From: Bacteroidia bacterium
GTDB lineage: Bacteria > Bacteroidota > Bacteroidia > NS11-12g > UBA955
DNA length: 64,000 nucleotides
Direction: 5' to 3'
NCBI GenBank assembly: GCA_044357345.1
Contig: JBIKPR010000003.1
Span: forward strand, 23,887 to 87,886
Shown here one piece after another: positions 2,027 through 38,747 of the stretch. The position numbers and the translations under genes are program-made. Under the pieces are notes generated by a model, which saw nothing but the letters and a program-made list of their open reading frames with translations, had not been told where the DNA came from and did not search any database. Numbering within the stretch: the first letter of the stretch is position 1; each line of letters starts with the position of its first letter.

Positions 2027-2980
2027 ATGAAAAATAAAAATATCTTTATCACAGGGGGAGCTGGTTTTATCGCCAACACATTAATCAGAACTCTAATTCA
2101 TGACAACAAAATTGTTGTTTATGATAATTTTCACAGAGACACATTAACTGAAAGTGGTTTTTTAAATCACCCCAATCTTACGGTTATAAAAGGAGATGTA
2201 TTGGATTATCCGTTATTGGAGAACTCAATGAGGGGGTCTAATATCATTGTACATGCAGCTGGTATTGCAGGCATAGATACTGTTGTGAAAGATCCAGTTA
2301 AAACAATGAGGGTTAACATGATAGGCACTGCAAATGCTTTAGAGTCTGCTTTACAAGTAGGCAATATAGAGAGGTTTGTAGACTTTTCAACATCAGAGGT
2401 TTTTGGATCAATGGCATTTCGCTCATCTGAAACCGACCAAACTGTTGCGGGTACAACAGGAGAGGCAAGATGGACCTATGCAGTAAGTAAACTGGCTGGA
2501 GAGCATTTAGCGCATGCCTATTATGAAAAATACAAGTTACCAATAGTTACAGTTAGACCTTTTAATGTGTATGGCCCAGGTCAAACTGGTGAAGGTGCTA
2601 TTCAAATATTTATAAAAAAAGCACTAGCAGGTGAAACGATTTATATCGATGGAGATGGCAACCAAATTAGAGCTTGGTGTTATGTCGACGATTTTGTGGA
2701 TTGTTTGTTCCGCTGTTTAGAAAATCCAAATGCAATAGGTCAAAGTTTCAATATTGGAAATGCAAGAGCTGTAATTACCATCTTGGGATTAGCCCAAACA
2801 GTTTGCCGCGTTTTAAATTCTTCATCTAAAATTGAATTCAGACCACCACTTTCTGCAGATATAGCTCTAAGAATTCCAAGTGTAGACAAAGCCAATGATA
2901 TTTTAGGATTTAAAGCAAATGTAGATTTAGAGGAAGGGGTATTGAAATCTGCAGAATGGATTAAGAACAACCTAATGTAA
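2027..2980 (+). CDS. NAD-dependent nucleotide-sugar epimerase/dehydratase (extended SDR)
   Basis: 317 aa. It has the Rossmann motif [13 protein letters not shown] near the N-terminus and the catalytic YAVSK (YxxxK). Confidence 0.8.
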
Positions 2981-2984
2981 TGAT

Positions 2985-3782
2985 ATGAAACAGCTTATTG
3001 AAAATCTTAAAATTAAAGGTGCAAGTTTTGTAGGTCAAATCCTTACAAAAGAACAGCTTGAATGGTTCCAAGCAGATTTACAAAATAAGAAAAAAGAGGA
3101 TATTGATAAGTATGGTAGAGAAGCCTTAATTGCTAATTTATTTTTAGAAACAGTGCAAGATTTAGGTAGATTTGAAGGGCCATATTATGATTTAATTGCC
3201 AATGAAAAAATTAATGAAATAGTTAATCATGCACTTAACGAAAAAGCTGTTATTCACTCCTTTAACGCAATAATTTTAGATGGACAGGCTAAAAGTAATA
3301 TGGTCGGTCATGGTTTTCACCGCGATATGCCATGGTTTCCTAATTGCAGAACAAGCATTATAGTAATGATTCCTTTGGTTGATTACGGGCCTTTTAATGG
3401 CTCTACACAGTATGTACCTGGTACCCATCTTTTTCAAGAAATGCCAAGTCTAGAATTTTTAGAAAGCAATTGTGTTTCTGTTGAAGGTAAAGCAGGTGAT
3501 GCTTTTGTAATAGATAGCACAACTTGGCACCGAGCTGGTGAAAATCAAAGTGGATTACCAAGACCTATGGTAGTAATTAAGTATACTTTAGCCCCATTTA
3601 AGCAGCAAATAGAATTTTATTTAAGCAATCCTAACTTAGAAACAGCACAAGAAATTGTGAAACAAAGACTAGGCTGGAATGTTAGAGTTCCGCATAATTA
3701 CGAGGAGGGAAGTGAGTTGAATAAAGATAAAAGAAAATTCAAAAGTGGTCAATATGATATGACAAATACGTATTTAAAATAA
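2985..3782 (+). CDS. PhyH-type Fe(II)/2-oxoglutarate-dependent oxygenase
   Basis: 265 aa. The pattern HGFHRDMPWF ... TTWHRAGEN fits a 2-His-1-carboxylate HxD...H facial triad in PhyH-like spacing. Confidence 0.6.
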   Translation: MKQLIENLKIKGASFVGQILTKEQLEWFQADLQNKKKEDIDKYGREALIANLFLETVQDLGRFEGPYYDLIANEKINEIVNHALNEKAVIHSFNAIILDGQAKSNMVGHGFHRDMPWFPNCRTSIIVMIPLVDYGPFNGSTQYVPGTHLFQEMPSLEFLESNCVSVEGKAGDAFVIDSTTWHRAGENQSGLPRPMVVIKYTLAPFKQQIEFYLSNPNLETAQEIVKQRLGWNVRVPHNYEEGSELNKDKRKFKSGQYDMTNTYLK

Positions 3783-7748: not shown

Positions 7749-8746
7749 ATGTATTCGTTTTAAATACAATGTCAGCAGGCCTTGACAACCTTAAAGAATT
7801 GATTCGTCATATTTCAATTAAAGGTGTTATTGGCCTAACCGATAGAATTAAAACAGATTCCATAAGTGATTTTATTTATCAAAAAGAGTTTTGTGATGCA
7901 AACAATTTGCCCTTTGTTGAGGTGACATCCTATGCACTGAATGCTGATACTGATCGCAAAAAAATAGAGGACCTTGAAATAGATGTTTTACTCGTTTTAG
8001 GATGGCAAAGATTAATTCCAGAATGGTTAATAAACCATTGTAAAATATGCGCAATTGGCGCCCATGGAAGTCCATTGGGAATAACTGAAGGTAGAGGAAG
8101 GTCACCACAGAACTGGGCTTTAATGATGGGTTGGGATGTTTTTCATGTTTCTATATTTAATATAGATAATGGAATTGATTCAGGTGAAATAATTGACAGT
8201 GCAGAATTTGAATATTCTCAGTGGGATGATATTTCTACAAGCTACTATAAGGTGAGTATGTTGGTATCTCATTTAATTATTAAAAATATAATAAATGGCA
8301 ATATTGCAGCAAAAAAAGCAATAGCTCAAGCAGGTACGCCATTTTATTTACCACAACGTTTGCCTGCTGATGGACATATAGATTGGAATCGGAAAACAAA
8401 AGATATTTATAACTTTATTAGGGCACTTTCTAAGCCTTATCCAGGGGCTTTTAGTTTAATTGAAAAAAGAAAAATTACCATTCATAAGGTAATTCCTTTT
8501 TCTTTATCCATCGAAGGAGAGTATCAAAATGGTCAAATTGTGAAGGTGTTTAACAGGAAACATTTTTTGGTGAAAACAGCAGATCACTTTATCCTTGTTA
8601 CTGATTTTGAAACCGATGCAAATATTGTTGAAGGGGATGTTTTATCAAGCTATTCTTGGAGAGAGAATATGAATACAATAATTGAGAGACACAAAGTAAA
8701 GCACCCTGATTTAAAATTGAACAAGTCTATATTAAATCTTGAATAG
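7745..8746 (+). CDS. Formyltransferase (Fmt/ArnA/sugar N-formyltransferase-like, two-domain)
   Basis: 333 aa. The N-domain pattern is VLLVLGWQRLIP ... AIGAHGSPLGITEGRGRSPQNW, a variant of the HxSLLPxxRG motif, followed by a C-terminal extension. The start overlaps the upstream stop as ATGA. Confidence 0.65.
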   Translation: MNVFVLNTMSAGLDNLKELIRHISIKGVIGLTDRIKTDSISDFIYQKEFCDANNLPFVEVTSYALNADTDRKKIEDLEIDVLLVLGWQRLIPEWLINHCKICAIGAHGSPLGITEGRGRSPQNWALMMGWDVFHVSIFNIDNGIDSGEIIDSAEFEYSQWDDISTSYYKVSMLVSHLIIKNIINGNIAAKKAIAQAGTPFYLPQRLPADGHIDWNRKTKDIYNFIRALSKPYPGAFSLIEKRKITIHKVIPFSLSIEGEYQNGQIVKVFNRKHFLVKTADHFILVTDFETDANIVEGDVLSSYSWRENMNTIIERHKVKHPDLKLNKSILNLE

Positions 8747-22890: not shown

Positions 22891-24039
22891 ATGACTCCTT
22901 TCAACAAACCCTTTTTAACAGGCAAAGAAACAGCCTATATTACCGATGCGGTTGCATCCGGTAAAATATCTGGCAATGGCAAGTATACCCAATTATGCCA
23001 AAATTATTTTGAAAATAAGTATGGTTTTCGAAAGTGTTTACTCACAACTTCATGCACAGATGCCTTAGAAATGGCAGCCATACTATTAGATATTAAATCT
23101 GGAGATGAAGTTATTATGCCTTCATATACTTTTGTTAGTACTGCCAATGCTTTTGTACTGCGAGGTGCAAAGATTGTGTTTGCAGATTCAATGAAGATAA
23201 ATCCTAATATAGATGCGCAATCTCTAGAGTTATTAATAACAAGCAAAACCAAAGCCATTGTGCCTGTGCATTATGCCGGAATATCATGTGATATGGATGC
23301 CATTATGGACTTGGCTGCCAAGAACAATCTATTTGTGGTGGAAGACGCTGCACAAGCTATTGACAGTTATTATACGGGTAAAGATGGCATTCAAAAGCCA
23401 TTGGGAAGTATCGGCCATTTGGCGGCTTTCAGTTTCCATGAAACCAAAAATATTATTTCTGGCGAAGGGGGAATGTTGGTGGTAAATGATCCACAATTTG
23501 CCCAAAGAGCAGAAATTATATGGGAAAAAGGCACAAACCGCTCTGCATTTTTTAGAGGCGAAGTAGACAAATATGGTTGGGTAGATGTAGGTTCTTCTTT
23601 TTTACCATCGGAAATAATAGCCGCTTTTTTATGGGCACAATTGGAACACTTAGAAGAGATACAAAATAAACGCAAGTCCATTTGGAAACAGTATTGGGAA
23701 GGATTGCAAACCCTGCAAGAAAAGGGTGTTCTTAAACTTCCCTTAGTGCCCGATTATGCCGCAAACAATGCCCACATGTTTTATGTGGTTTGTCAAAATC
23801 TAGAACACAGGATAAACTTAATTGATGCATTGAAAAAAGAAGAAATCCATTCAGTTTTTCATTATTTAAGTTTGCATAAAAGTCCATTCTATCAAACCAA
23901 ACACGATAGGCGTATCTTGCCTAATTCAGATTTTTATTCAGATACTTTGTTAAGGTTGCCAATGTATTATGAGTTAGAAGAGAGTATAGTCGAGAGAATA
24001 GTTGAAATAATTATGGGAATTTATAATGATCAATTGTAA
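22891..24039 (+). CDS. wecE: dTDP-4-amino-4,6-dideoxyhexose transaminase (WecE/RffA type)
   Basis: 382 aa. It is near-colinear with E. coli WecE as I recall it. Shared segments are PFNKP, SCTDALEMAAILLDIKSGDEVIMPSYTFVSTANAFVLRGAKIVFAD, NLFVVEDAAQ, FSFHETKN, EKGTNRS.FFRG.VDKY.W.D.GSS and NAHMFY. Confidence 0.85.
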   Translation: MTPFNKPFLTGKETAYITDAVASGKISGNGKYTQLCQNYFENKYGFRKCLLTTSCTDALEMAAILLDIKSGDEVIMPSYTFVSTANAFVLRGAKIVFADSMKINPNIDAQSLELLITSKTKAIVPVHYAGISCDMDAIMDLAAKNNLFVVEDAAQAIDSYYTGKDGIQKPLGSIGHLAAFSFHETKNIISGEGGMLVVNDPQFAQRAEIIWEKGTNRSAFFRGEVDKYGWVDVGSSFLPSEIIAAFLWAQLEHLEEIQNKRKSIWKQYWEGLQTLQEKGVLKLPLVPDYAANNAHMFYVVCQNLEHRINLIDALKKEEIHSVFHYLSLHKSPFYQTKHDRRILPNSDFYSDTLLRLPMYYELEESIVERIVEIIMGIYNDQL

Positions 24040-28722: not shown

Positions 28723-28989
28723 ATGAGAAAATCAAAATTTACAGAAGTACAAATTTTAAAAGCACTAAAAGAGTATGAAACAGGCAGGTCAGCAGAAGAC
28801 ATAAGCCGAGACTTGGGTATTCAAAAAGTTACTTTTTATAGGTGGAAACAAGAGTATTCAGGGATGAATTCTACCCAAATGTCAGAATTAAAAGCACTAA
28901 GAGAAGAAAACCAAAAGTTAAAGACCATGTATGCCGATATGGCCTTAGACAATAAGGTTCTTAAGGATGTGTTGTCAAAAAAGTTCTGA
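28723..28989 (+). CDS. IS3-family transposase OrfA (HTH)
   Basis: 88 aa. It has MRKSKFTEVQILKALKEYETGRSAEDISRDLGIQKVTFYRWKQEY followed by a leucine-zipper-like tail. Confidence 0.9.
   Translation: MRKSKFTEVQILKALKEYETGRSAEDISRDLGIQKVTFYRWKQEYSGMNSTQMSELKALREENQKLKTMYADMALDNKVLKDVLSKKF
28977..28983 (+). other. Programmed -1 ribosomal frameshift heptamer A AAA AAG
   Basis: The heptamer is in the correct X XXY YYZ phase of orfA (tcA AAA AAG ttc tga). The -1 frame continues KVLKPCDRRERVDYIVSEY... into orfB. Confidence 0.7.
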
Positions 28990-29808
28990 AGCCTTGTGAC
29001 CGCAGGGAACGGGTTGATTATATTGTATCTGAATACAATTTTAGTCTGTCCAAGGCTTGCAAATTAATGAACCTATCCCGAACAGTGTACAAATATAAAT
29101 CGAAGAGAGATGATAGCCAGGTAGAAGACAGGGTACTTTCTTTGGCGTTAAAGAGGCCAACGGATGGCCAAGATATGATTTACTATAGAATAAGAAACGA
29201 AGGGGTAAAATGGAATTACAAACGCGTTAGAAGAATTTATATGAAGTTGAATTTAAACAAGAAAACTAAAACACGAAAAAGAATACCTGCTAGAGTAAAG
29301 GAGCCATTATTCTGCCCAGAAGAGCCAAACTATGGGTGGTCAATGGACTTCATGCACGATGCTCTGAGCAATGGCAGAAAATTTAGGACTTTGAATGTAA
29401 TTGATGATTACAATAGAGAAGTTCTTGCAATAGGAGCTCACTTAAGTATAGGCTAAAAATTGGTGACTGATGTATTAAACGATATTGAAATTGAAAGAGG
29501 AAAACCAAAAATTATTAGGGTTGATAATGGCCCGGAATTTATATCAAGTATATTAGGGGATTGGTGCTACAAGAGAGATATTAAATTGCAATTTATACAA
29601 CCCGGAAAGCCTACTCAAAATGGCTACGTAGAAAGATTTAACAGAACTTTTAGAAGAGAAATATTAGATGCATACATATTCGATAGCTTGGATCAGGTCA
29701 GATTACTGACTGAAGAATGGATACAAGAATACAACAACGACAGACCTCATGAATCATTGGGAGGAATACCTCCAGCGCTATACAGCAAGCAAAATTCTAA
29801 TTTTAAAA

Positions 29809-29834
29809 GCAGGGAGGCTAGCCTCCCTGCTTTT
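29809..29834 (+). terminator. GC-rich hairpin plus T-run inside the IS right end
   Basis: GCAGGGAGGC-TA-GCCTCCCTGC forms a perfect 10-bp stem, followed by TTTT. It lies within the 3' end of orfB. The relic copy at 19327..19352 has one stem mismatch. Confidence 0.35.
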
Positions 29835-29990
29835 AAAGAACCTTTAATATTGAAGAATTAAATGAGAAACATTATCTTTGAATCCTGTACTAAAAAAGGG
29901 AGGGTTACAGTATCGTTAGTTTAAATTTTGAGCTGATTATTGAATTATTTGGCGAATAATTCCTGTTCAAAAATAGTTTTGAGAACATTA

Positions 29991-30535
29991 ATGCTTAATA
30001 TGACACTTCGCATTAAAAGCATTAAATAAATTAACTATGAATCTTTAGAATATTTTATGGATCTTGATTTACGCATCCAAAAAGATAAAATCATTATTCT
30101 CAAGATGCATTTAAAAATGGTGAAGATTTTGAGGAGTGTTATAAATTTTAAAATCATATGTTTAGAAAGAACGAATTTTAGTTTTGATAAAAATAATTTA
30201 ATAGTAAGAATTATTTCTTTTTAGACTTGTCCTTACCCTTTTTAATCAAATACATGAAAAAAGGCGTATCGAAAATTGCTGTTCGTTTTTCAGAGTTCGA
30301 ACCTTTGGAGTTTGTAATGAATTTTGCAGGGAAGGTGGATTGGGTATGGGTAGATTGTTTCACGGACTTACCATTAAACCCTGAAAATTATAAGATATTG
30401 AAAAAACACTTTAAGTTTTGTTTGGTATCACCTGAGTTGCAGGGATATGATACATCAAAAATAGAAGAGTTTAAAAATAAATTAAAAGACATGCCCATGG
30501 ATGCGGTTTGTACAAAAAGACCTGATTTGTGGTGA
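29991..30535 (+). pseudogene. Multi-lesion pseudogene of a GDPD-like TIM-barrel protein abutting the IS
   Basis: The 3' part is the intact ORF 30227..30535 (KNYFFLDLSLPFLIKY...VDWVWVDCF...CLVSPEL...AVCTKRPDLW). Upstream pieces lie in other frames (YFMDLDLRIQKDKIIIL, then QDAFKNGEDFEECYKF). There is a TAA at 30027..30029 and at least two frameshifts. The family assignment is from memory only. Confidence 0.45.
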
Positions 30536-30539
30536 AGCC

Positions 30540-30603
30540 TAGGCGTAAAGAATACGAACTTATTAGATAATCCTGGGCTTTCCTTGCGACTCTGCGGTTA
30601 AAA
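30540..30603. repeat. Half-element of the CGCAAAG-type palindromic repeat family
   Basis: CCTTGCGACTCTGCGGTTAAA (30583..30603) is the inverted complement of TTTAACCGCAAGAGT on the other side of the HAD gene (31238..31263). Confidence 0.4.
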
Positions 30604-30612
30604 ATATTATAA

Positions 30613-31242
30613 ATGAATCACATCCCTCTATCCAACCTCAAAGCTATTCTCCTAGACCTAGACGATACAATCTATGCCTATCAGCCTTGTCACCAGGCGG
30701 GCTATGAAGCATGTAAGGTTTTAGCAGAAAAGAAATATAGGATTTCCAATTTAGATTTTGATTCAGCATGGAAATCAGGAAGAGATAAAGTTCACCATGA
30801 CTTACATGGTCAAGGTGCTTCTCATTCCCGTTTGCTCTATGCACAAAAAGCAAGTGAAAGCTTGTTTGGTAAAAGCAACCCTGTATTTGCATTAGAGATG
30901 GAAGAAACCTATTGGAGTGTTTTTTTAGAAACCATGGTGTTCAAGCCGGGAGTAGAAGAATTTCTTAAAGAGGCCAAAGTAAAAGGAATTAAAATGTGTA
31001 TCGTAACCGATTTAACCGCTCAAATTCAGATGCAAAAGTGGGTAAAATTGGATTTGGGAAGGTATGTTGATTTCCTAGTGAGCTCGGAGGAATCAGGTAT
31101 TGAAAAACCTGGGAAATATATGTTTGAATTGGCAATGGAGAAGCTTGGCTTGAAAGCCGAAGACTGTATTATGATTGGAGATAGTGAGGAGAAAGATATA
31201 AAGGGAGCGGAGGCTATGGGGATTAAGGGCTATAAAGTTTAA
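30613..31242 (+). CDS. HAD-superfamily hydrolase (phosphatase-like)
   Basis: 209 aa. Motif I is ILLDLDDTIY (DxDxT). Also present are CIVTDL and the motif IV region IMIGDSEEKDIKGA. Confidence 0.8.
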   Translation: MNHIPLSNLKAILLDLDDTIYAYQPCHQAGYEACKVLAEKKYRISNLDFDSAWKSGRDKVHHDLHGQGASHSRLLYAQKASESLFGKSNPVFALEMEETYWSVFLETMVFKPGVEEFLKEAKVKGIKMCIVTDLTAQIQMQKWVKLDLGRYVDFLVSSEESGIEKPGKYMFELAMEKLGLKAEDCIMIGDSEEKDIKGAEAMGIKGYKV

Positions 31243-31312
31243 CCGCAAGAGTTTAACCGCAAGAGTTTCACGCAAAGGACGCAAAGAAAGGAAACGCTAA
31301 GTACGCAAAGAG
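31236..31312. repeat. Left arm of a CGCAAAG-unit palindromic element
   Basis: There are three tandem 14-bp units: AGTTTAACCGCAAG twice, then AGTTTCACGCAAAG. These are followed by GACGCAAAG, ACGCTAAG and TACGCAAAG units. The HAD stop codon lies inside unit 1. Confidence 0.8.
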
Positions 31313-31313
31313 T

Positions 31314-31691
31314 ATGAATGAAAATCAAATTTCAAAAATAGTTTTAGATGTTGCGTTTAAACTTCATACTGAAGTAGGTCCTGGATTATTGGAATCAGCG
31401 TATGAAGCCGCCCTAGCTCATGATTTCATAGAAAATGGATTATTAGTTGAAACACAAGTTCCAGTTCCATTTGTTTATAAAGATGTGAAACTTGAAGTTG
31501 GGTATCGAATGGATATTTTAATAAACAAAATAGTAGTTTTAGAAATCAAGTCAGTTGAACAACTAGCGCCAGTTCATTTTGCTCAAACATTAACTTATCT
31601 GAAGTTGGCAGATAAAAAACTTGGATTGCTGATTAATTTCAACAATAAGCATTTAAAAGACGGTATTCACCGTATCGTAAATAAAATTTAA
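31314..31691 (+). CDS. GxxExxY family protein (PD-(D/E)XK nuclease-like)
   Basis: 125 aa. The signature is GPGLLESAYEAALAHDF (GxxExxY), with a later D...E.K-like core (MDILINKIVVLEIKS). Confidence 0.8.
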   Translation: MNENQISKIVLDVAFKLHTEVGPGLLESAYEAALAHDFIENGLLVETQVPVPFVYKDVKLEVGYRMDILINKIVVLEIKSVEQLAPVHFAQTLTYLKLADKKLGLLINFNNKHLKDGIHRIVNKI

Positions 31692-31740
31692 CCTTCGCGC
31701 CCTTTGCGTAAAAAATCTTTGCGCCCTTTGCGTGAAAGTA
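31692..31740. repeat. Right arm of the same palindromic element
   Basis: The reverse complement of CTTTGCGCCCTTTGCGTGAAA (31717..31737) matches TTTCACGCAAAGGACGCAAAG (31266..31286) at 20 of 21 positions. Confidence 0.8.
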
Positions 31741-31742
31741 TT

Positions 31743-33824
31743 ATGATACAACTTAAAGACAAAAACGGCACCCACAAATTACCTATTTTAAAATCCCGCC
31801 TATTTTGGGCTGGGGTATTGGTAAAGTTTGTACTATCTATTCTGTTTGCTTCTGATTATTTAAGTGAGCTCTTTGCACCATTTGGAAATTATTTTATTTC
31901 CTCTGGGTTTGCAAATCCATATGAATATTTTGCTCAGAATGGATCAGGAACGGAATTTCCTTATCCACCTTTAATGTTGTGGTTGTTTTCAAGTTTTAGA
32001 GCAATTTTTTGGGTGATTTTACCTGGTGGTATTGATGTGTTTTCATTGGCAGATAGCCTCCTTTACAGAATCCCATTGTTTATTGCTGATTTAAGCATCC
32101 TATTTGTATTAATGAGATGGCTAAAAACCAAAACGCGCCAAGTTTTAATTTGGTATTGGCTGTCTCCAGTGTTAATTTATATTAATTATTTTCATGGTCA
32201 ATTGGATGTAATTCCAATGGCATTTTTAATAGGTTCATTGTATTTTCTTTTTAAAAATAAATGGGTGTATTCCTTTTTGATTTTAGGATTTGCAATTACT
32301 TGTAAAACCAACATGGTATTGGTTCTGCCTTTTTTCATAATTTATTTGTGGAGAATTCCTACGATAGATTTCAAAAAAATAATAACGGTTATGTCCATTA
32401 TGTTTTCGACCGTGTTGTTGTTAAATCTACCATATATTAGTTCAGCTGACTACGTCAATATGGTATACAACAATCCTGTGCAACAGCAGGTTTTTGATTT
32501 ATTTTATCAGTTTAATTCAAATCTTAAAATCTATTTTATACCAGCCATTTATTTTGTGTTGGTCTTATGGTATTTCAGTTTCAAATTTGTGAACCGCGAC
32601 CAGCTAATATTATTTTTAGCCTTTACTTTTTTGGCACTCACACTCATGATAGCCCCTATGCAGGGTTGGTATTTTTGGATAATGCCTTTATTGATTTATT
32701 TTGTCATTAAGCATGGTAAAAGAGAGCAATTGGTCTTCGTGATTTTGTCGTTTTTATATTTTATTTATTTCGGATTTATTCAACACTCAGACTACTTTAA
32801 TTCCTATAATTTCGCAACGATAGATTCACCGCTTTTCGTTTATGATGAAACATTATTAAACATTGCTTTTACATTGTTGCAAACCACCTTATTAATTATG
32901 GCTTACCTCTTATTTAAAAATGGTATTAGCAGCAATATTCAGGCTAAATTTTTATCACAACCTTACATGATTGGTATTGGCGGGGATTCAGCTGCTGGTA
33001 AATCTACATTAACTAATGCCTTGGCTTCTGTTTTTGAAATTCAAAATACAACGATAATTCGAGGGGATGATATGCACAAGTGGGAGCGAGGAAATGAAAA
33101 TTGGAAAAAATTTACACATTTAGACCCAAGGGCCAACCATTTGCATCAAGATTTAGACCAAGCTAAAAGTTTAAAAATAGGGCAAACCGTTAAACGGAGT
33201 TTTTACGACCATAACACTGGTAAGTTTACTATCCCTACCTTCTTAAAACCCAACAAATTAATTTTGTTTGAGGGATTACATTCATTTTATCTTCAAAATC
33301 AATTGGATGTTTATGATTTAAAAATCTTTATGCAGCCTCAGGAAGATTTACGGGTGTGGTGGAAAGTGAAAAGAGATGTAGCCAAAAGAGGTTATTCACC
33401 TGAACAAGTTTTGGAGCAATTAAAAACAAGAGAACAAGACTCAGAGAAGTACATTAAAAATCAAGCGCTTCATGCTGACATCGTTGCAAGTTTTTACAGT
33501 GAAAACGAAATTAATCCTGTAGACTTGGAAACTGAACCACAAATTGGACTAAAATTGAGATTTACGAATGGTGTTGGATTAGATCAAATAATAGATAAGT
33601 TAGATCAAATAGATTCATTAAAAGTAGAACATGAGTTTGACAATATTCATCAGTATTTGATATTAAATGGCACTATATCCGAAAACGATATTGAATTAAT
33701 CGCCTACCAATTGATCCCACAATTGGAAGAAATTGGGGTTTATAATCCAAAATGGAAATCTGATTATGAAGGATTGTTGCAATTTTTAACGGTTTATTTT
33801 GTCTTTGAAAAGATGAAAGCATAG
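31743..33824 (+). CDS. Fusion protein: N-terminal polytopic GT-C-like membrane domain plus C-terminal phosphoribulokinase/uridine-kinase-family P-loop kinase
   Basis: The ATG at 31743 is preferred, because the 13 upstream codons in the ORF track are repeat sequence. About 410 aa contain 10 or more hydrophobic segments. From about nt 32960 the kinase motifs are IGIGGDSAAGKSTLTNAL, LFEGLH, DLKIFMQP, WWKVKRDVAKRGYS and REQDSEKYI. Confidence 0.75.
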   Translation: MIQLKDKNGTHKLPILKSRLFWAGVLVKFVLSILFASDYLSELFAPFGNYFISSGFANPYEYFAQNGSGTEFPYPPLMLWLFSSFRAIFWVILPGGIDVFSLADSLLYRIPLFIADLSILFVLMRWLKTKTRQVLIWYWLSPVLIYINYFHGQLDVIPMAFLIGSLYFLFKNKWVYSFLILGFAITCKTNMVLVLPFFIIYLWRIPTIDFKKIITVMSIMFSTVLLLNLPYISSADYVNMVYNNPVQQQVFDLFYQFNSNLKIYFIPAIYFVLVLWYFSFKFVNRDQLILFLAFTFLALTLMIAPMQGWYFWIMPLLIYFVIKHGKREQLVFVILSFLYFIYFGFIQHSDYFNSYNFATIDSPLFVYDETLLNIAFTLLQTTLLIMAYLLFKNGISSNIQAKFLSQPYMIGIGGDSAAGKSTLTNALASVFEIQNTTIIRGDDMHKWERGNENWKKFTHLDPRANHLHQDLDQAKSLKIGQTVKRSFYDHNTGKFTIPTFLKPNKLILFEGLHSFYLQNQLDVYDLKIFMQPQEDLRVWWKVKRDVAKRGYSPEQVLEQLKTREQDSEKYIKNQALHADIVASFYSENEINPVDLETEPQIGLKLRFTNGVGLDQIIDKLDQIDSLKVEHEFDNIHQYLILNGTISENDIELIAYQLIPQLEEIGVYNPKWKSDYEGLLQFLTVYFVFEKMKA

Positions 33825-33900
33825 TAACGCAGATTTCGCAGAAAAATAAGAAATAATAACTTTTGATTATTAACGCAGATTATTTTTTGCTTCGCAAAAA
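33825..33900. repeat. CGCAGA-type variant intergenic repeat
   Basis: TAACGCAGAT occurs twice (33825..33834 and 33871..33880). A partial dyad is formed by TTCGCAGAAAAAT and ATTTTTTGCTTCG. Confidence 0.3.
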
Positions 33901-33973
33901 TTTGTTTGTAAAAAAATCAACCAAAATAGTTTAACCTCATTAACTATTAGATGTAAAAGATTTAAAAAAAATC

Positions 33974-34678
33974 ATGATACAAATTTATGCTCACAGAGGC
34001 AATATGTCTCAGTTCCCTGAAAACACAATGGAAGCTTTCCAAAGTGCAATTAATCTAAGGTGCCCCTGGATAGAGCTAGACATACAACAAACCAAAGATG
34101 GACATTTGGTGGTAACACATGATGAATCTTCAAAAAGAGTGACTGGAGTCAACACGATAATAAGTCAAACAAACTATGAGGAATTAAAGCAATTAAATTT
34201 TGGCAAATATTTTAATAAGAATCAAATGCATGCTCTTCCTTTATTGTCAGAAGTATTTGATAGCATCAATAACACCCAAACTAAAGTTAGCATACAACCC
34301 AAAGCCAACGGATTGATAATACCAGCTATTGAACTAGCAAAACAATGCAGTGTTTTTGAACAAATTGCTTTTAACGATATCAATTGTGAATATCTAATCG
34401 AAGCTAAGTTATATGATAAAAATATTCCTGTTCATTGGGATAGGTTGCCAGGTACGGGATTAGAAACGGATATTTTCATAGCCAAACAATTTGGTTTTGA
34501 AACATTAATGTATTTAAATGAAGCCATAACCTTAGAAAAGGTAAAGCGTGTACAAAATGAAGGAATTAAAATGGGTGCTTGTGTGGTCAATAAAATGGAA
34601 GATTTTAAAAAATATTTGGAATGGGGGATTACCCATTTTTATACGGATTACCCCAAGGAATTTTTAGCAACAATATGA
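33974..34678 (+). CDS. Glycerophosphodiester phosphodiesterase (GDPD) family
   Basis: 234 aa. Motifs are IYAHRGN, PENTMEAFQSA, IELDIQQTKDGHLVVTHDES and the C-terminal HFYTDYP. Confidence 0.8.
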   Translation: MIQIYAHRGNMSQFPENTMEAFQSAINLRCPWIELDIQQTKDGHLVVTHDESSKRVTGVNTIISQTNYEELKQLNFGKYFNKNQMHALPLLSEVFDSINNTQTKVSIQPKANGLIIPAIELAKQCSVFEQIAFNDINCEYLIEAKLYDKNIPVHWDRLPGTGLETDIFIAKQFGFETLMYLNEAITLEKVKRVQNEGIKMGACVVNKMEDFKKYLEWGITHFYTDYPKEFLATI

Positions 34679-35445
34679 AAATAGTAATAGCAATGACAGG
34701 GCAAGGCAGTCGCTTTAAGAAAGCGGGATACGAGACCTATAAAGCCTTAATTCCAATTCATGGAAAGCCTGTAATACAGCATGTAACAGAGTTATTTCCA
34801 GGTGAAACAGATTTTATTTTCATTTGTAGAAATGATATGTTGGAAACTACTGATTTAAAAGAACAATTATTGGGATATGTGCCTACTGCTCAAGTTGTAG
34901 GAATAGATTCTCATAAATTAGGACCGGTATACACAGTATCTAAAATTTATGACTTAATAGGTGATGATGAGCCGGTGATATGCAATTACTGTGATTTTAG
35001 TATGGCTTGGGATTACAGTCATTTTAAAAATCAGATGGAAGAGTCTGGAGTGGATGGTTCTGTTATTTGTTACACTGGATTCCATCCACATTTGTTGCAC
35101 CCTAAAAATCTTTATGCCACATGTTTGGTCGATAAAAATATGAACATGTTAGAAATCACCGAAAAACATGATTATGAAACCGACCGTGAGAAAGGGTATT
35201 ATTCAGGGGGAACTTATTATTTTAAAAAAGGCAAATACATCAAGCAATATTTTGAAGAATTGATGAACAATAAGGTGACCATTTTCGATGAGTATTTTAT
35301 TAGTTTGCCTTATAATTTTATGGTGAGAGATGGTTTAGATGTAAATGTATATGCAGATGTACCACATTTTTGCCAATGGGGCACTCCCGAGGACATGGAA
35401 GAGTATCTTAGTTGGGCAGAAATATTTAAAACAATTAAATCATAA
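34675..35445 (+). CDS. Nucleotidyltransferase-fold protein (sugar/alcohol-phosphate NTP-transferase-like), copy 1
   Basis: The ATG at 34675 overlaps the GDPD stop as ATGA. It has MTGQGSRFKKAGY..K.LIPIHGKP and the C-terminal QWGTPEDMEEY. Confidence 0.65.
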   Translation: MKIVIAMTGQGSRFKKAGYETYKALIPIHGKPVIQHVTELFPGETDFIFICRNDMLETTDLKEQLLGYVPTAQVVGIDSHKLGPVYTVSKIYDLIGDDEPVICNYCDFSMAWDYSHFKNQMEESGVDGSVICYTGFHPHLLHPKNLYATCLVDKNMNMLEITEKHDYETDREKGYYSGGTYYFKKGKYIKQYFEELMNNKVTIFDEYFISLPYNFMVRDGLDVNVYADVPHFCQWGTPEDMEEYLSWAEIFKTIKS

Positions 35446-35471
35446 GCGCTCCTTTAGTAAAAAAAATATAG

Positions 35472-36245
35472 ATGAACAATAAACCTATAAAACTTACCCC
35501 AATGGCCGGTGCTGGAAGCCGTTTTACAGAAAAGGGTTACACGGTGCCTAAACCATTACTTCAAGTGATGGGCTTGCCTATGGTAGTTAGTGCAGCCAAA
35601 GCACTTCCTGGTCCTGATGAAAATATGGTATTTGTGTTAAGAGATTTTCATATTTCAGAATATGGTATTGACAAAACACTTGTGGAGCACTTTCCTGATG
35701 CTAAAATTATTGTGATAGACCAATTGACAGAAGGTCAAGCTAGCACTTGTCTATTGGCAAAAGAATTTATAAATAATGACCAAGAGCTGTTTATAGGAGC
35801 AAGTGACAATGGAATGCTTTATGACCATGCTAAATTTGAGCAGGCCAAAAAGGAAGCAGATGCCCTTGTATTTACCTTCAGAAACAATCCAACTGTATTA
35901 CCAAAACCAGCTGCTTACGGATGGGTGGAAGTAGAAGAAGATGATTCTACTATCATCGAAGCAAAAGTAAAGTTTGACATGCCCGACCCACTTCGCAAAC
36001 ACGCTTATGTTGGCGCTTTTTGGTTCAAAACGGGAAAACTTTTTGTAGAAGCGGCAGAGCGCATGATCGCACAAAACCGCAGAATTAATAATGAATTTTA
36101 TGTAGATGAGTGCATTAATGATGTGATTCAATTGGGTTATAATGCCAAAGTGTTTGAAGTAGACCATTACATTTGTTGGGGAACTCCGAACGATTATAAA
36201 ACCTTCCAATATTGGGAAGCGTATTACAATAAAGTAAAACCATAA
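35472..36245 (+). CDS. Nucleotidyltransferase-fold protein, copy 2 (paralogue of 34675..35445)
   Basis: 257 aa. It has PMAGAGSRFTEKGYTVPKPLLQVMGLPM and the C-terminal CWGTPNDYKTF. The architecture is the same as copy 1. Confidence 0.65.
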   Translation: MNNKPIKLTPMAGAGSRFTEKGYTVPKPLLQVMGLPMVVSAAKALPGPDENMVFVLRDFHISEYGIDKTLVEHFPDAKIIVIDQLTEGQASTCLLAKEFINNDQELFIGASDNGMLYDHAKFEQAKKEADALVFTFRNNPTVLPKPAAYGWVEVEEDDSTIIEAKVKFDMPDPLRKHAYVGAFWFKTGKLFVEAAERMIAQNRRINNEFYVDECINDVIQLGYNAKVFEVDHYICWGTPNDYKTFQYWEAYYNKVKP

Positions 36246-36249
36246 AAGA

Positions 36250-36343
36250 TTTCACGCAAAGACCGCTAAGGTTTCGCAACGTTCGCTAAAAAAATGCCAT
36301 TGCGCACTTTGCGTTTCCTTTACTTTGCGCACTTTGCGAGAAA
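36250..36343. repeat. CGCAAAG-unit palindromic intergenic element (empty)
   Basis: The left arm TTTCACGCAAAGACCGCTAAGGTTTCGCAACGTTCGCTAA faces the right arm TTGCGCACTTTGCGTTTCCTTTACTTTGCGCACTTTGCGAGAAA. Confidence 0.75.
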
Positions 36344-36354
36344 TATACAAACCA

Positions 36355-37098
36355 ATGTTATCCATTATCCTCCCATGCTATAACGAACAAGACAACTTAG
36401 AATTCTTGTTCAATTCCCTTGACCTTGTGGCTGCTGCTCACCAGGACTTAGAGATTATATTGGTTAATAACGGTTCAACAGATAATTCATTAGCTGTATT
36501 TGAACAAGAAATAACCAAACGCAACTCTGCCAAATTTAAAGTGGTAACAGTAGAAAAAAACATAGGCTATGGTTATGGCATACTCACTGGTTTAAGAGCC
36601 GCTAAGGGCGATATTCTATCAGTTACCCATGCTGACCGTCAAACTGATCCTATGGATGTCCTTAAGGCTCTTGGTTTATTTCATAAAAACTTACATTCAG
36701 AAACATCAGAAGGGAGTCTGCTTGTTAAAGGCTATCGAAAGAACCGCAGACCAATGGAAGCTTTCTTTTCTTGGGGAATGGGTTTCTTGTCTAGCATAGC
36801 GTTAGGCACAAGACTTACAGAAATTAACGCCCAACCCAAATTATTTAGTAAGTCCTTTTTTGACAATATAGAGAAAGATGCTCCCCATGATTTTTCCTTA
36901 GATTTATATTTTCTATACCATGCAAAAAAGCAAGGACGAATTATTGATTTTCCAGTGTATTTTGCCAAGCGTGTAGCAGGTGAAGCAAAAGGCGGAAGTG
37001 GAAGCAGTTGGAAGGTCCGTTGGAAATTAATGAAACGGATTTTTAAGTATATTTTCGAATTAAGAAACAAAATGAAAATTTCACGCAAAGCCCGCTAA
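36355..37098 (+). CDS. GT2 glycosyltransferase, Dpm1/polyprenyl-phosphate-sugar synthase-like, no TM tail
   Basis: The ATG at 36355 is preferred, because the upstream 10 codons in the ORF track are repeat sequence. Motifs are LSIILPCYNEQDN, LVNNGSTDNS and THADRQTDP. The last 6 codons and the stop are supplied by the downstream repeat. Confidence 0.8.
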   Translation: MLSIILPCYNEQDNLEFLFNSLDLVAAAHQDLEIILVNNGSTDNSLAVFEQEITKRNSAKFKVVTVEKNIGYGYGILTGLRAAKGDILSVTHADRQTDPMDVLKALGLFHKNLHSETSEGSLLVKGYRKNRRPMEAFFSWGMGFLSSIALGTRLTEINAQPKLFSKSFFDNIEKDAPHDFSLDLYFLYHAKKQGRIIDFPVYFAKRVAGEAKGGSGSSWKVRWKLMKRIFKYIFELRNKMKISRKAR

Positions 37099-37179
37099 GG
37101 TAACGCAAAGCCCGCGAAGATGTTTTCAAAATCCTTTGCGGGCTTTGCGTTGTCTTTACTTTGCACCCTTTGCGTGAAA
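37079..37179. repeat. CGCAAAG-unit palindromic intergenic element (empty)
   Basis: The outer arms are TTTCACGCAAAG...CTTTGCGTGAAA. The inner perfect 14-bp stem is AACGCAAAGCCCGC (37102..37115) paired with GCGGGCTTTGCGTT (37138..37151). Confidence 0.8.
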
Positions 37180-37190
37180 CAAAAAAACCC

Positions 37191-38747
37191 ATGAAGAAAT
37201 TCATCTTAAACCACCCCATAGAAATACTCTTTAGTACTCTCTTTCTAACTCTAGCAGCTATCCTCAACTTGCAGTTTCTTGAGGGATCTAATGTAAATTT
37301 TACATTTTCTGGACACGATGAATACCTAACGGTTAGAGAAGTATATTCCATATTACAACCCTTGTCATTGAAGCATTTTATAATGGCTATAATCTCAGGT
37401 GATGTATTGTATTATGGAAGAATTGTTTTTTATGTGGATGCTTTGCTTGCGTTTATACCTTACAAAATTTGGGGCATAGATGGTATGGTATATGCCATAA
37501 GAATGACCCATGTTATTGAACTTTTACTTGGGATTTTGTTATTGAATAATTTCATAAAAACCAATGTCGGTAAGTTGTTTTTTGCCTTTAATGTTCTCAT
37601 ATTATATTATACAGCCTATTTTGTAATGGTTCCTAAGCCAGAGCCTTTACAGCTTTTGCTTTTAGCCATTTTTCTAATTAAAGCGCATAAAGTTAACTGG
37701 CAATTTGGTTGGCATTTTATTTGGTTAGGAATGGCTTACGGAGTTAAGTTTAATGTATTAACTGCACTTCCTTTGTTGTTTATTTTGCCTTACCTTGTTG
37801 GTTACAAGAAATTAGGTGGATTTATAAAGTCATTATTTGCATTTCTAGCAGGAATAATTGTTGCTATCCCATGTTTAATACTTACACCATTAAAACCAAT
37901 ATTTCTTCAAACCTATATAAAAAGAACTTTTGGAAACGCTTCGCATTATGATGATACTGGTGTATCATTCAAGACTTGGATAGAAAATGGATGGTTGGGG
38001 GCTTATAGCGGTGGTTTGTTGCTAGGTTTGGTATTGCTTTTTGTAATTTCTTGGATCTGTTATTTAGGGATTAAAAACTACCTAAAAATCCGCAAAGTTG
38101 AAAATAGTTTTATCTTAATATTGTTAGGATTAGTTCTTTTGTTGCCTGTTATTTTATTTACTGAAAGACTATGGCCTCATTATTTATGGACAGGCCACGT
38201 ATTTTTATTGTTAGGAATTGCTGTCTTAGCCAATCAAAATCTTAATCTTAAGTATATATTTGTTTTATTGTATTTATTAATGACAATAGGTGGAATAAGA
38301 TCCATTGTAAAACAAGGGAAGGATCTTTTTTTCTTGGAAAGTAAGGCAAAAGAATTAATTCTAAATTCAAAACGTGCCCACGCATTCATAAAAAAACAAA
38401 GAGACACCCTTGTTTCTATTCAAGATATATCTGTTTATTATCCATTTACGGAGATGCTTAAAATTAATAGATACCATCCTTTTTCAGGTAAAAAGCCAGT
38501 CAAACTTGAAAAAGAAAAATTCATGTGGGATAATTTAATGGATTATTCTATGATCAAAGACGAAAAAACAGATTATTTATTGCTTAATAGGTTTAGTTTT
38601 TTAGATATGGATGTTGATTATAGCACAACTAAGGATTCAATTATTTTAAAAAATAAAATAAAACTAAGAGAACAGTATGGTAAAACTATTTTTTTGGATA
38701 CAACATTTGGTTCGATTAATGTATATAGAATAGAAAGTGTCAAATAG
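37191..38747 (+). CDS. GT-C-like polytopic membrane glycosyltransferase (ArnT/PMT-like) with a C-terminal soluble domain
   Basis: The ATG at 37191 is preferred. About 12 hydrophobic segments are followed by a hydrophilic tail of about 140 aa. It lies directly downstream of a Dpm1-like GT2. Confidence 0.6.
   Translation: MKKFILNHPIEILFSTLFLTLAAILNLQFLEGSNVNFTFSGHDEYLTVREVYSILQPLSLKHFIMAIISGDVLYYGRIVFYVDALLAFIPYKIWGIDGMVYAIRMTHVIELLLGILLLNNFIKTNVGKLFFAFNVLILYYTAYFVMVPKPEPLQLLLLAIFLIKAHKVNWQFGWHFIWLGMAYGVKFNVLTALPLLFILPYLVGYKKLGGFIKSLFAFLAGIIVAIPCLILTPLKPIFLQTYIKRTFGNASHYDDTGVSFKTWIENGWLGAYSGGLLLGLVLLFVISWICYLGIKNYLKIRKVENSFILILLGLVLLLPVILFTERLWPHYLWTGHVFLLLGIAVLANQNLNLKYIFVLLYLLMTIGGIRSIVKQGKDLFFLESKAKELILNSKRAHAFIKKQRDTLVSIQDISVYYPFTEMLKINRYHPFSGKKPVKLEKEKFMWDNLMDYSMIKDEKTDYLLLNRFSFLDMDVDYSTTKDSIILKNKIKLREQYGKTIFLDTTFGSINVYRIESVK

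Follow-up and report, generated by a model that had tools for sequence, protein, structure and literature searches.

A putative selfish nuclease-in-palindrome cassette family in a polysaccharide-type operon of a Bacteroidia bacterium

Introduction

The REPIN-RAYT systems, or REPtrons, which link repetitive extragenic palindromic (REP) elements to a REP-associated tyrosine transposase (RAYT), are the closest analogue, in their logic, of the elements described in this report (PMC3116915, PMC3333891, PMC6006769). These elements were found in a stretch of 64,000 nt from a Bacteroidia bacterium (positions 23,887 to 87,886 of contig JBIKPR010000003.1, assembly GCA_044357345.1; C95:23887-87886), referred to below as the window. 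They comprise a cassette, in which two inverted arrays of CGCAAAG-type heptamers enclose the gene of a predicted nuclease of the GxxExxY family, and gene-less palindromes of the same design.

As in the REPIN-RAYT systems, inverted short palindromic repeats bracket an enzyme gene that is usually present once, and gene-less intergenic copies are present as well; each resident gene has its own repeat type, and repeats are missing where the gene is missing. There are, however, differences. The enzyme is a 125-aa protein of the PD-(D/E)XK type (Cas4/lambda-exonuclease-like) instead of an HUH/Y1 transposase. The arms consist of 7-nt words repeated with a spacing of 8-9 nt, in place of one REP hairpin headed by GTAG or CGTC, and the four sites lie within 7 kb of one operon, whereas REPINs are dispersed in tens to hundreds of copies.

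A second parallel is provided by the intervening sequences of the 23S rRNA genes of Coxiella and Leptospira (PMC4990558), which are also small open reading frames (ORFs) within inverted repeats, form a long stem in the transcript and have the patchy distribution of selfish elements. These sequences interrupt helix 25 or 45 of an rRNA, whereas the elements studied here lie in an mRNA operon, and they encode the S23p four-helix-bundle protein, not a GxxExxY protein; their excision by RNase III is known.

The locus also resembles homing endonuclease genes, in that a small nuclease gene is placed exactly inside a sequence that its product may recognize, gene-bearing and gene-less sites coexist, and the occupant has been replaced between lineages. 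Unlike homing endonucleases, the GxxExxY protein falls outside the LAGLIDADG, GIY-YIG and HNH families and the PD-(D/E)XK type of cyanobacterial tRNA introns, its "site" would be a palindrome made of repeats, where a homing endonuclease has a unique host gene, and the recognition itself is a prediction.

Miniature inverted-repeat transposable elements (MITEs) that occur in operons, such as Correia/NEMIS and ERIC/IRU, are imperfect palindromes of about 100 bp with terminal inverted repeats, which are inserted into intergenic spacers that are transcribed and can supply codons or stops to neighbouring genes. They derive from, or depend on, DDE-type transposases and generate target-site duplications (TA in the case of Correia). 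The gene-less elements of the window (E3 and E4) are likewise intergenic imperfect palindromes of about 100 bp with terminal repeats, and one of them supplies codons to a glycosyltransferase gene, but neither a duplication nor a transposase partner was seen here, the arms consist of heptamer arrays, and no transposition is known for the partner nuclease.

From the comparison of this locus with related ones we consider it probable, if far from certain, that the elements constitute a family of selfish nuclease-in-palindrome cassettes, represented in the window by a complete member (31266-31737), two non-autonomous, gene-less members (E3 and E4) and a decayed copy (30536-30612).

Results and Discussion

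A nuclease gene enclosed by inverted heptamer arrays

The elements, all of which are described here on the plus strand, are located within one co-directional polysaccharide-type operon, a few nucleotides from stop and start codons. The operon contains, in this order, a conserved 102-aa gene, a HAD phosphatase gene, a gene encoding a 693-aa protein with a phosphoribulokinase (PRK)/uridine-kinase domain, a GDPD-family gene, two nucleotidyltransferase (NTP) genes, a GT2 glycosyltransferase gene, a gene for a 518-aa membrane protein, a GT1 gene and then sugar-modifying genes.

The heptamer CGCAAAG or its complement CTTTGCG is present 23 times in the window, compared with 3.9 expected occurrences, and none of 100 shuffled sequences reached this number; 15 of the 23 matches fall into four clusters (31271-31310, 31702-31732, 36255-36338 and 37084-37174). 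The units are therefore real and non-random, as had been proposed in an earlier interpretation of the DNA made without database searches (the sequence-only reading). That reading had described imperfect palindromes at four gene junctions, of which 36250-36343 and 37079-37179 are indeed self-contained. In contrast, 31236-31312 and 31692-31740 are not separate palindromes, since they contain the two arms of one inverted repeat placed around the ORF 31314-31691. The recognition of this gene-bearing member, which had been missed, changes the interpretation of the locus.

The left arm of the cassette (31266-31310) starts with TTTCA, followed by four heptamers in two pairs (CGCAAAG-GA-CGCAAAG, 8 nt, CGCTAAG-TA-CGCAAAG), and the ATG of the enclosed gene lies 3 nt past the final unit. 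The right arm (31693-31737), which begins 1 nt past the stop codon of this gene, mirrors the left one (CTTCGCG-CC-CTTTGCG, 8 nt, CTTTGCG-CC-CTTTGCG, TGAAA), and the ATG of the next gene (31743) is located 5 nt beyond its end. A repeat search recovered the arms as a single inverted repeat of 61 nt, with 70% complementarity and a separation of 382 nt, and in the predicted RNA fold of 31255-31750 they pair and enclose the whole ORF, in the minimum free energy and centroid structures alike. The conserved outer ends noticed earlier were confirmed: TTTCACGCAAAG (at 31266, 36250 and 37079) is paired with CTTTGCGTGAAA (31726 and 37168) or, once, with CTTTGCGAGAAA (36332). Directly upstream of the left arm there are two tandem copies of the 14-mer GTTTAACCGCAAGA (31237-31250 and 31251-31264, identified by reading the sequence); this segment is the remnant of an older outer arm, without a right-hand partner.

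The enclosed gene (31314-31691) encodes a protein of 125 aa, whose profile matches identify it as a minimal PD-(D/E)XK nuclease: TIGR04256 (E 1e-38, 132 bits, cut-off 35; positions 2-116 of 116) and PF13366 PDDEXK_3 (E 3e-37, 128 bits, cut-off 22). The above-cut-off, full-length profile match, the motif G24-L-L-E27-S-A-Y30 (GLLESAY) and the catalytic residues D67, E77 and K79 place it in the GxxExxY family, and E27, D67, E77 and K79 are invariant across 54 homologues. The AlphaFold2 model (pLDDT 95.2, pTM 0.87) has a nuclease fold, the nearest solved structure being that of Cas4 SSO0001 (4ic1; TM 0.59, 24% identity over 106 columns), with further matches to lambda-type and alkaline exonucleases and, more weakly, to archaeal splicing endonucleases. 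A sequence search of the PDB with the 125-aa protein returned no match, so the likeness is at the fold level only, and the protein is predicted to be a minimal RecB/Cas4-like nuclease core. It is encoded by the single GxxExxY gene of the 2.68-Mb genome, although the PF13366 family is very large (more than 7,900 clusters at E<=1e-10 with this single query). In the full-text literature on GxxExxY, PDDEXK_3, PF13366 and TIGR04256 we found no assigned function and no link to repeats, nor did we find any paper on the gene-plus-palindrome design.

Gene-less palindromes and relics

The two self-contained palindromes share the design of the cassette. E3 (36250-36343, NTP/GT2 junction, 94 nt) and E4 (37079-37179, junction of the GT2 and membrane-protein genes, 101 nt) have four CGCNAAG heptamers per arm, TTTCACGCAAAG ends and a loop of 14-15 nt joining the arms; with 12-nt terminal repeats and no ORF, they have the structure of MITEs. 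They may be cassette derivatives in which the arms have been joined directly; their loops, in which remnants of the gene were looked for, are too short to bear on this origin. The units of E3 are partly decayed, while E4 is the best-preserved copy and contains the perfect 14-bp stem (37102-37115 with 37138-37151) that had been noted previously.

Two further junctions contain relics. The segment ahead of the HAD gene (30536-30612; GGCGTAAAG ... CCTTGCGACTCTGCGGTTAAAA) had been proposed to form a pair with 31236-31312, a claim that we could not uphold: the segment is a decayed copy (RNA fold of 30530-30612 weak, z -1.4), and the arm 31266-31310 has its partner in 31693-31737. The likeness of the right end of 30536-30612 to the left end found across the HAD gene is as expected if these are the facing ends of neighbouring elements of the same family. 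The second relic (33825-33905), which was absent from the earlier list, lies at the junction of the PRK-like and GDPD genes and contains units of another type (CGCAGAT), AACGCAGAT twice and TTCGCAGAA once, confined to the plus strand. This stretch has been conserved in the loci L023 and L025, and it is probably the relic of a second type of cassette, since its words are of the same type as those flanking the GxxExxY genes of L022, L023 and L025.

No further palindromic array of the CGCAAAG type was detected, either elsewhere in the window or in the whole assembly (2.68 Mb, 134 contigs, 36.5% GC), which extends the earlier observation of no other copy in the 64 kb. The sequence-only reading had regarded a lack of further genomic copies as evidence against insertion; nevertheless, this idea stands, because copies are present in other genomes. 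Three minus-strand units without an inverted partner were found at C102:16984-17046. Clusters on contigs C108, C52, C78 and C83, which were considered as candidate copies, proved to be chance pairs within ordinary sequence.

Arms and gene in other genetic contexts

Homologues that are 67-93% identical to the window protein were found with the same arms in at least four gene contexts. The protein P0011 (91% identical) is encoded at the HAD/PRK junction, between CGCAAAG arms with TTTCACGCAAAG ends, and the gene of P0008 (93% identical) precedes the HAD gene in three independent metagenome contigs (L128-L130). In L127, P0008 is encoded at both junctions (before HAD and HAD/PRK), the two proteins being identical and their arms similar but not identical. 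The full CGCAAAG-armed cassette of L127-L130 thus occupies the junction at which the window has its relic, and the left arm of the window cassette recurs ahead of the 91-93% identical genes of L124 and L127-L129. Homologues with 67-72% identity are present in three unrelated polysaccharide clusters with CGCNAAG arms, most of which have (T)TTCACGCAAAG ends; one such gene has an epimerase gene on either side, in Plebeiibacterium marinum as well as in a related contig, and another (67% identical) is flanked by a GT4 gene and a gene for an AAA ATPase (L134). In L131, which also encodes a homologue of this group, the CGCAAAG-armed GxxExxY gene is followed directly by a second, truncated PDDEXK_3 ORF (1141-1383, 80 aa, GFLEAVYQEA type). 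As judged from these comparisons, the cassette (arms plus gene) is inherited and relocated as a unit.

Several of these loci have additional features. L131 contains cassettes of two clades in tandem, and in L134 the gene is preceded by five tandem palindromes of about 125 bp with TTTCACGCAAAG ends (1900-2440) and followed by five or six (2940-3500). The genome G026 carries eleven copies of a two-unit arm, TTTCACGCAAAGACGCAAAG, over eight contigs (L006, L010, L012, L015-L021); the copies are mostly solo or in direct tandem, not palindromic, and closely match the arms of its single GxxExxY gene (L107). A GC-rich viral contig from IMG/VR (L137), whose base composition is markedly different, contains two direct copies of CTTTGCGgcCTTTGCGccCTTTGCGTGAAAC (1064-1092 and 1446-1474), 382 nt apart, with no GxxExxY-like ORF between them or on the 3.8 kb examined.

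Filled and empty junctions of one operon

The same operon was recovered from about 25 uncultured freshwater Bacteroidota by a scan with the 693-aa protein. In relatives whose PRK-like protein is 58-66% identical to that of the window, the HAD-to-PRK gap is only 5-43 nt long, and nearly all of the other junctions measure 0-30 nt and lack repeats, a few being longer. Specifically, in the more distant relatives the junction before HAD is reduced to about 10-20 nt and the NTP/GT2 junction to 2-30 nt. In the closer clade (PRK 72-96% identical), six loci were checked at the HAD/PRK junction. Five of them contain a GxxExxY gene there; in L036 the junction is a spacer of 451 nt that includes CGCAAAG units but no such gene. 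One CGCAAAG unit has been kept at the junction before HAD in L022 and L036.

The GxxExxY proteins encoded at the HAD/PRK junction in the closer clade are 29-43% identical to that of the window, and the arms of each gene follow a word type of their own: CACAAAG / CACGAAG / CTTAGTG in L024 and L026, and CGCAGATTAA / TTAATCTGCG (the CGCAGAT type) in L022, L023 and L025. The gene-less sites vary in a similar way. At the NTP/GT2 junction there is a CGCAAAG palindrome in the window and in L022, which are orthologous, while L024 has a palindrome of the CAC type there and L026 one of the CGCTAAG type; the junction of the GT2 and membrane-protein genes contains elements of the CGCAAAG (window), CGCAGAT (L022), CAC (L024) and CGCGAAG (L026) types. 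Within a genome the array type usually matches the arms of the resident gene, and in L024 all of the junction elements and the gene arms are of the CAC type. In this comparison of orthologous junctions, which had been suggested as a check, the elements are missing in distant relatives, and the unit type at the same junction differs between genomes.

Some cassettes are nested. In L023, L025 and L130 a CGCAGAT cassette is placed inside outer remnants of the TTTCACGCAAAG...CGCAAAG type, and in L026 a CAC-type cassette lies inside outer CTTAGCG units. As far as can be read from these loci, the cassette evidently inserts into the few bases between the genes of polysaccharide operons, and can also sit inside older palindromes.

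An even smaller insert may be represented by GTCCGATAGCTATCGGAC, an 18-bp perfect palindrome located between two heptamer units of the CGCAAAG arms of several relatives (L022:13281-13296, L023:3156-3171 and 8393-8408, L127, L128, L129 and L130); it looks like a still smaller nested palindromic insert and was not noticed in the elements of the window. The operon as a whole is a recombination mosaic when the window is compared with L026, L022 and L023, and some of the breakpoints coincide with palindrome-bearing junctions. Protein identity to the window shifts abruptly between neighbouring genes; the L026 proteins, for example, show values of 72% (PRK), 78% (GDPD), 95% (NTP3), 95% (NTP), 79% (GT2) and 42% (membrane protein).

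Association of the arrays with the gene

Arrays were sought in 61 related genomes with two-unit and three-unit patterns. Of the 36 genomes that have a GxxExxY gene, 18 contain three-unit CRCNAAG arrays, compared with only one of the 25 that lack it (odds ratio 24, Fisher p 1.5e-4), and reversed-pattern controls were near zero; since these genomes are related to each other and not phylogenetically independent, the p-values overstate the independence of the counts. The arrays thus occur almost only in genomes with the gene. In G000, G001, G003 and G036 nearly all of them are located in this operon, and they are dispersed in other genomes. An inverted repeat (z>5) between the 150-nt flanks was found for 15 of 29 GxxExxY genes of relatives, but for only two of 300 control genes taken from the window's own genome (p 3e-16).

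The word type also follows the protein. On a maximum likelihood tree of 33 proteins it changes 15 times, compared with 19.8 times for shuffled labels, and none of 200 shuffles gave a value as low. The CGCAGAT group forms one well-supported clade, whereas the split between CGCAAAG and CACNRAG is unresolved.

Selfish cassettes or passenger genes

The anatomy of the cassette, the joint transfer of gene and arms, the existence of filled as well as empty sites and the link between arrays and gene presence are evident from these genome comparisons, and the interpretation of the elements as selfish cassettes is built on them. Among the options considered in the sequence-only reading, that of MITE-like insertions fits best, given that the elements are absent in distant relatives and that the same arms are found elsewhere, although the gene-bearing cassette had been overlooked.

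Several observations weigh against this interpretation. The copies of the window are 78-83% identical (differing by about 17-22%) and are no closer to each other than to copies from other genomes, which gives no sign of recent movement in this genome. No target-site duplication could be recognized at the element borders when direct repeats were sought in the sequence, and exact empty sites were found only in relatives too diverged to align, none of them in a near-identical strain. The gene arms of L026 are of the CAC type, while its four gene-less palindromes are of the CGC type. Half of the gene-bearing genomes lack a three-unit CRCNAAG array (this type alone having been counted), about half of the GxxExxY genes of relatives have no clear flanking inverted repeat within 150 nt, and the related genomes share ancestry. 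Moreover, nucleases with Cas4/lambda-exonuclease-like folds process DNA ends and are not known as sequence-specific transposases.

With regard to the age of the elements, identities of palindromes across genomes range from 64 to 89%, and some pairs from the same junction are the most alike (e.g. L022 and L124, 89%). No clear pattern of clustering by genome or by junction emerged, and there was no sign of recent duplication in this genome. Given the divergence of about 17-22%, the copies of the window look old and mostly vertically inherited rather than active, and nothing indicates current movement here.

Some of the same observations could also be explained if the palindromes came first and the gene is their passenger. 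According to this explanation the palindromes were spread by a host factor, by replication slippage at hairpins or by another enzyme, and GxxExxY genes merely insert preferentially into, or persist in, palindrome centres, so that the nuclease does not mobilize the gene-less copies. The nesting of cassettes of differing types (L023, L025, L130 and L026), the mismatch between gene arms and gene-less copies in L026, the direct rather than inverted orientation of the solo arms of G026, and the viral contig with two direct three-unit arms and no GxxExxY ORF on the 3.8 kb examined are what such a history might leave behind. It does not, however, account readily for the near absence of arrays from gene-less related genomes (1 of 25), for the entry of arms and gene into unrelated contexts with their termini kept, or for the tracking of the protein clade by the unit type, and we therefore judge it unlikely.

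DNA word or RNA structure

Another explanation is that the hairpins are RNA elements selected by the host, by which parts of the polycistronic mRNA are processed, stabilized or uncoupled from each other, the GxxExxY gene being incidental. The folding energies that had been suggested as a check are in part consistent with this. E3 (36240-36350; -30.7 kcal/mol, z -3.8) and E4 (37070-37190; -53.5 kcal/mol, z -8.8) form stable structures in the sense strand, which for E4 is 5.8 kcal/mol better than the antisense strand; the relic before HAD, in contrast, folds weakly, as mentioned above. In addition, every element lies inside one co-directional operon near stop or start codons, and the arms enclose an ORF as in a 23S rRNA intervening sequence (PMC4990558).

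The variation of the units argues for a different kind of constraint. Thirteen gene-less palindromes, taken from four genomes, were compared unit by unit. Of their 35 units, 29-32 are paired at positions 1-3 and 5-7 but only 18 at position 4, and no covariation was detected at position 4 (14 Watson-Crick pairs, compared with 11.2 expected). Positions 1-3 and 5-7 are kept on both arms while position 4 varies without compensatory changes; the arms thus keep the word C-R-C-N-A-A-G and not the pairing, and recognition by a protein would fit better than selection for an RNA helix.

Searches for known signals gave no support for a regulatory RNA. A terminator scan returned five terminator-like sites compared with 5.2 expected, none of which coincides with an entire element, and neither E3 nor E4 is followed by a T-run, so that the role of attenuators considered in the sequence-only reading is unsupported (the elements are not intrinsic terminators). 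A scan for sigma-70 promoters revealed no enrichment, with a model that does not cover promoters of the Bacteroidota type, and a search of 30000-38000 against Rfam at E<=1 gave only a chance-level miRNA hairpin (30 bits, gathering score 82). The orientation of GxxExxY genes relative to their neighbours (co-oriented with the upstream gene in 22 of 26 cases and with the downstream gene in 19 of 25) was not clearly above the estimated background and was not used as evidence.

Selection by the host is also difficult to reconcile with the many relatives that possess the operon with tight junctions and no hairpins, with the variation in unit sequence, length and boundaries at one junction among close relatives, and with arrays that track the presence of the gene. 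We consider an origin of the elements as host-selected RNA structures improbable, more so than the passenger history, although RNA processing or stability roles for the hairpins are possible.

Finally, the elements might be REP/REPIN sequences served by the RAYT of this genome, which does contain Y1_Tnp genes and in which the repeats are palindromic and intergenic, as is typical of REPINs (PMC3116915, PMC3333891), but this is scarcely credible, since the two Y1_Tnp genes of contig C43 are flanked by unrelated hairpins of their own, none of the three Y1_Tnp genes has a CGCAAAG cluster next to it (a match pair past the weak Y1_Tnp match on C83 being ordinary sequence with no array), the GTAG or CGTC tetranucleotide conserved in REP heads (PMC3733652) is lacking and the enclosed gene encodes a PD-(D/E)XK nuclease, not a Y1 transposase. 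The identification as REP/RAYT was rejected on the grounds of enclosed gene, heads and copy number. The genome's own REP/RAYT system consists of the Y1_Tnp genes C43:15884-16228 and C43:45449-45793 with arrays of tacaaatgtgtcaccccNNNggggt... hairpins.

Effects on neighbouring genes

The proposed contribution of the elements to the coding sequence of two adjacent genes was confirmed for one of them. The GT2 protein of the window terminates with ...KMK-ISRKAR*, and the left end of E4 provides its stop and the six codons before it (37078-37098), whereas the GT2 orthologues end with ...KVKA* or ...KVKQ*, just ahead of their own element. The stop codon of the HAD gene (V-TAA, 31240-31242), which together with the last codon is included in the first GTTTAACCGCAAGA copy, had also been ascribed to the element. 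However, in all close relatives the stop comes after the same valine codon regardless of the element that follows, so that it is not element-specific, and in three insertion-free relatives the protein ends at the equivalent residue. The end of the HAD gene thus seems to have been copied by the array, not supplied by it. Three ORF calls (31704, 36325 and 37161) begin inside elements; the starts of the orthologues point to ATGs at 31743, 36355 and 37191, in agreement with the false N-terminal extensions inferred previously.

Some features of the surrounding genes may be added. A degraded IS3-family element (28723-29861) is located just upstream of this segment of the operon, with an orfA of 88 aa (HTH_Tnp_1) and an orfB with the rve integrase core that is split into two parts (29067-29456 and 29460-29861). 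The best match of the HAD protein is ribulose-1,5-bisphosphate 5-phosphatase, below the cut-off. The 693-aa protein (31743-33824) has an N-terminal half without known domain in addition to its PRK/uridine-kinase domain, and its full-length homologues (36-47% identity, loci L042-L092) come from records labelled Patescibacteria, Saccharibacteria, DPANN archaea, Rickettsiales and other groups, which for a gene of a glycan cluster is an uncommonly broad and scattered distribution.

A possible mechanism and its implications

If the elements are selfish cassettes, the GxxExxY nuclease would recognize the heptamer words of its own arms, and cutting of the palindromes by this enzyme, at a hairpin, a cruciform or their ends, could promote their copying or conversion. 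By analogy, the nuclease would serve the palindromes as a RAYT serves REPINs, or as a homing endonuclease serves its site. The long hairpins in the mRNA would be tolerated side effects, possibly processed by RNase III as in the 23S rRNA intervening sequences.

A more specific proposal, which we offer tentatively and regard as possible but doubtful, is a form of palindrome homing, in which word-specific GxxExxY nucleases cut palindromes made of their own words and would thereby drive the copying of themselves, or of gene-less arms, into existing palindromes. The occupation of five to six junctions in a single operon, and the differences in unit type between species, would then be explained. If it is true, the elements would constitute a class of prokaryotic mobile elements apart from transposons, REPIN-RAYT systems and classical homing endonucleases, and would act as break-and-join points at which modules of glycan genes, and the cassettes themselves, are exchanged between lineages.

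The presence of one conserved operon in about a dozen lineages provides a natural experiment, in which empty junctions, cassettes at two junctions, nesting, replacement of the unit type, and gene-less and decayed copies can all be compared. If the GxxExxY protein is the enzyme partner of the heptamer-array palindromes, an orphan family would gain a role that can be tested, annotated genomes would owe many of their false ORF extensions and unusual C-termini (the GT2 tail among them) to such elements, and bacteria would have a second, RAYT-independent route to persistent intergenic palindromes.

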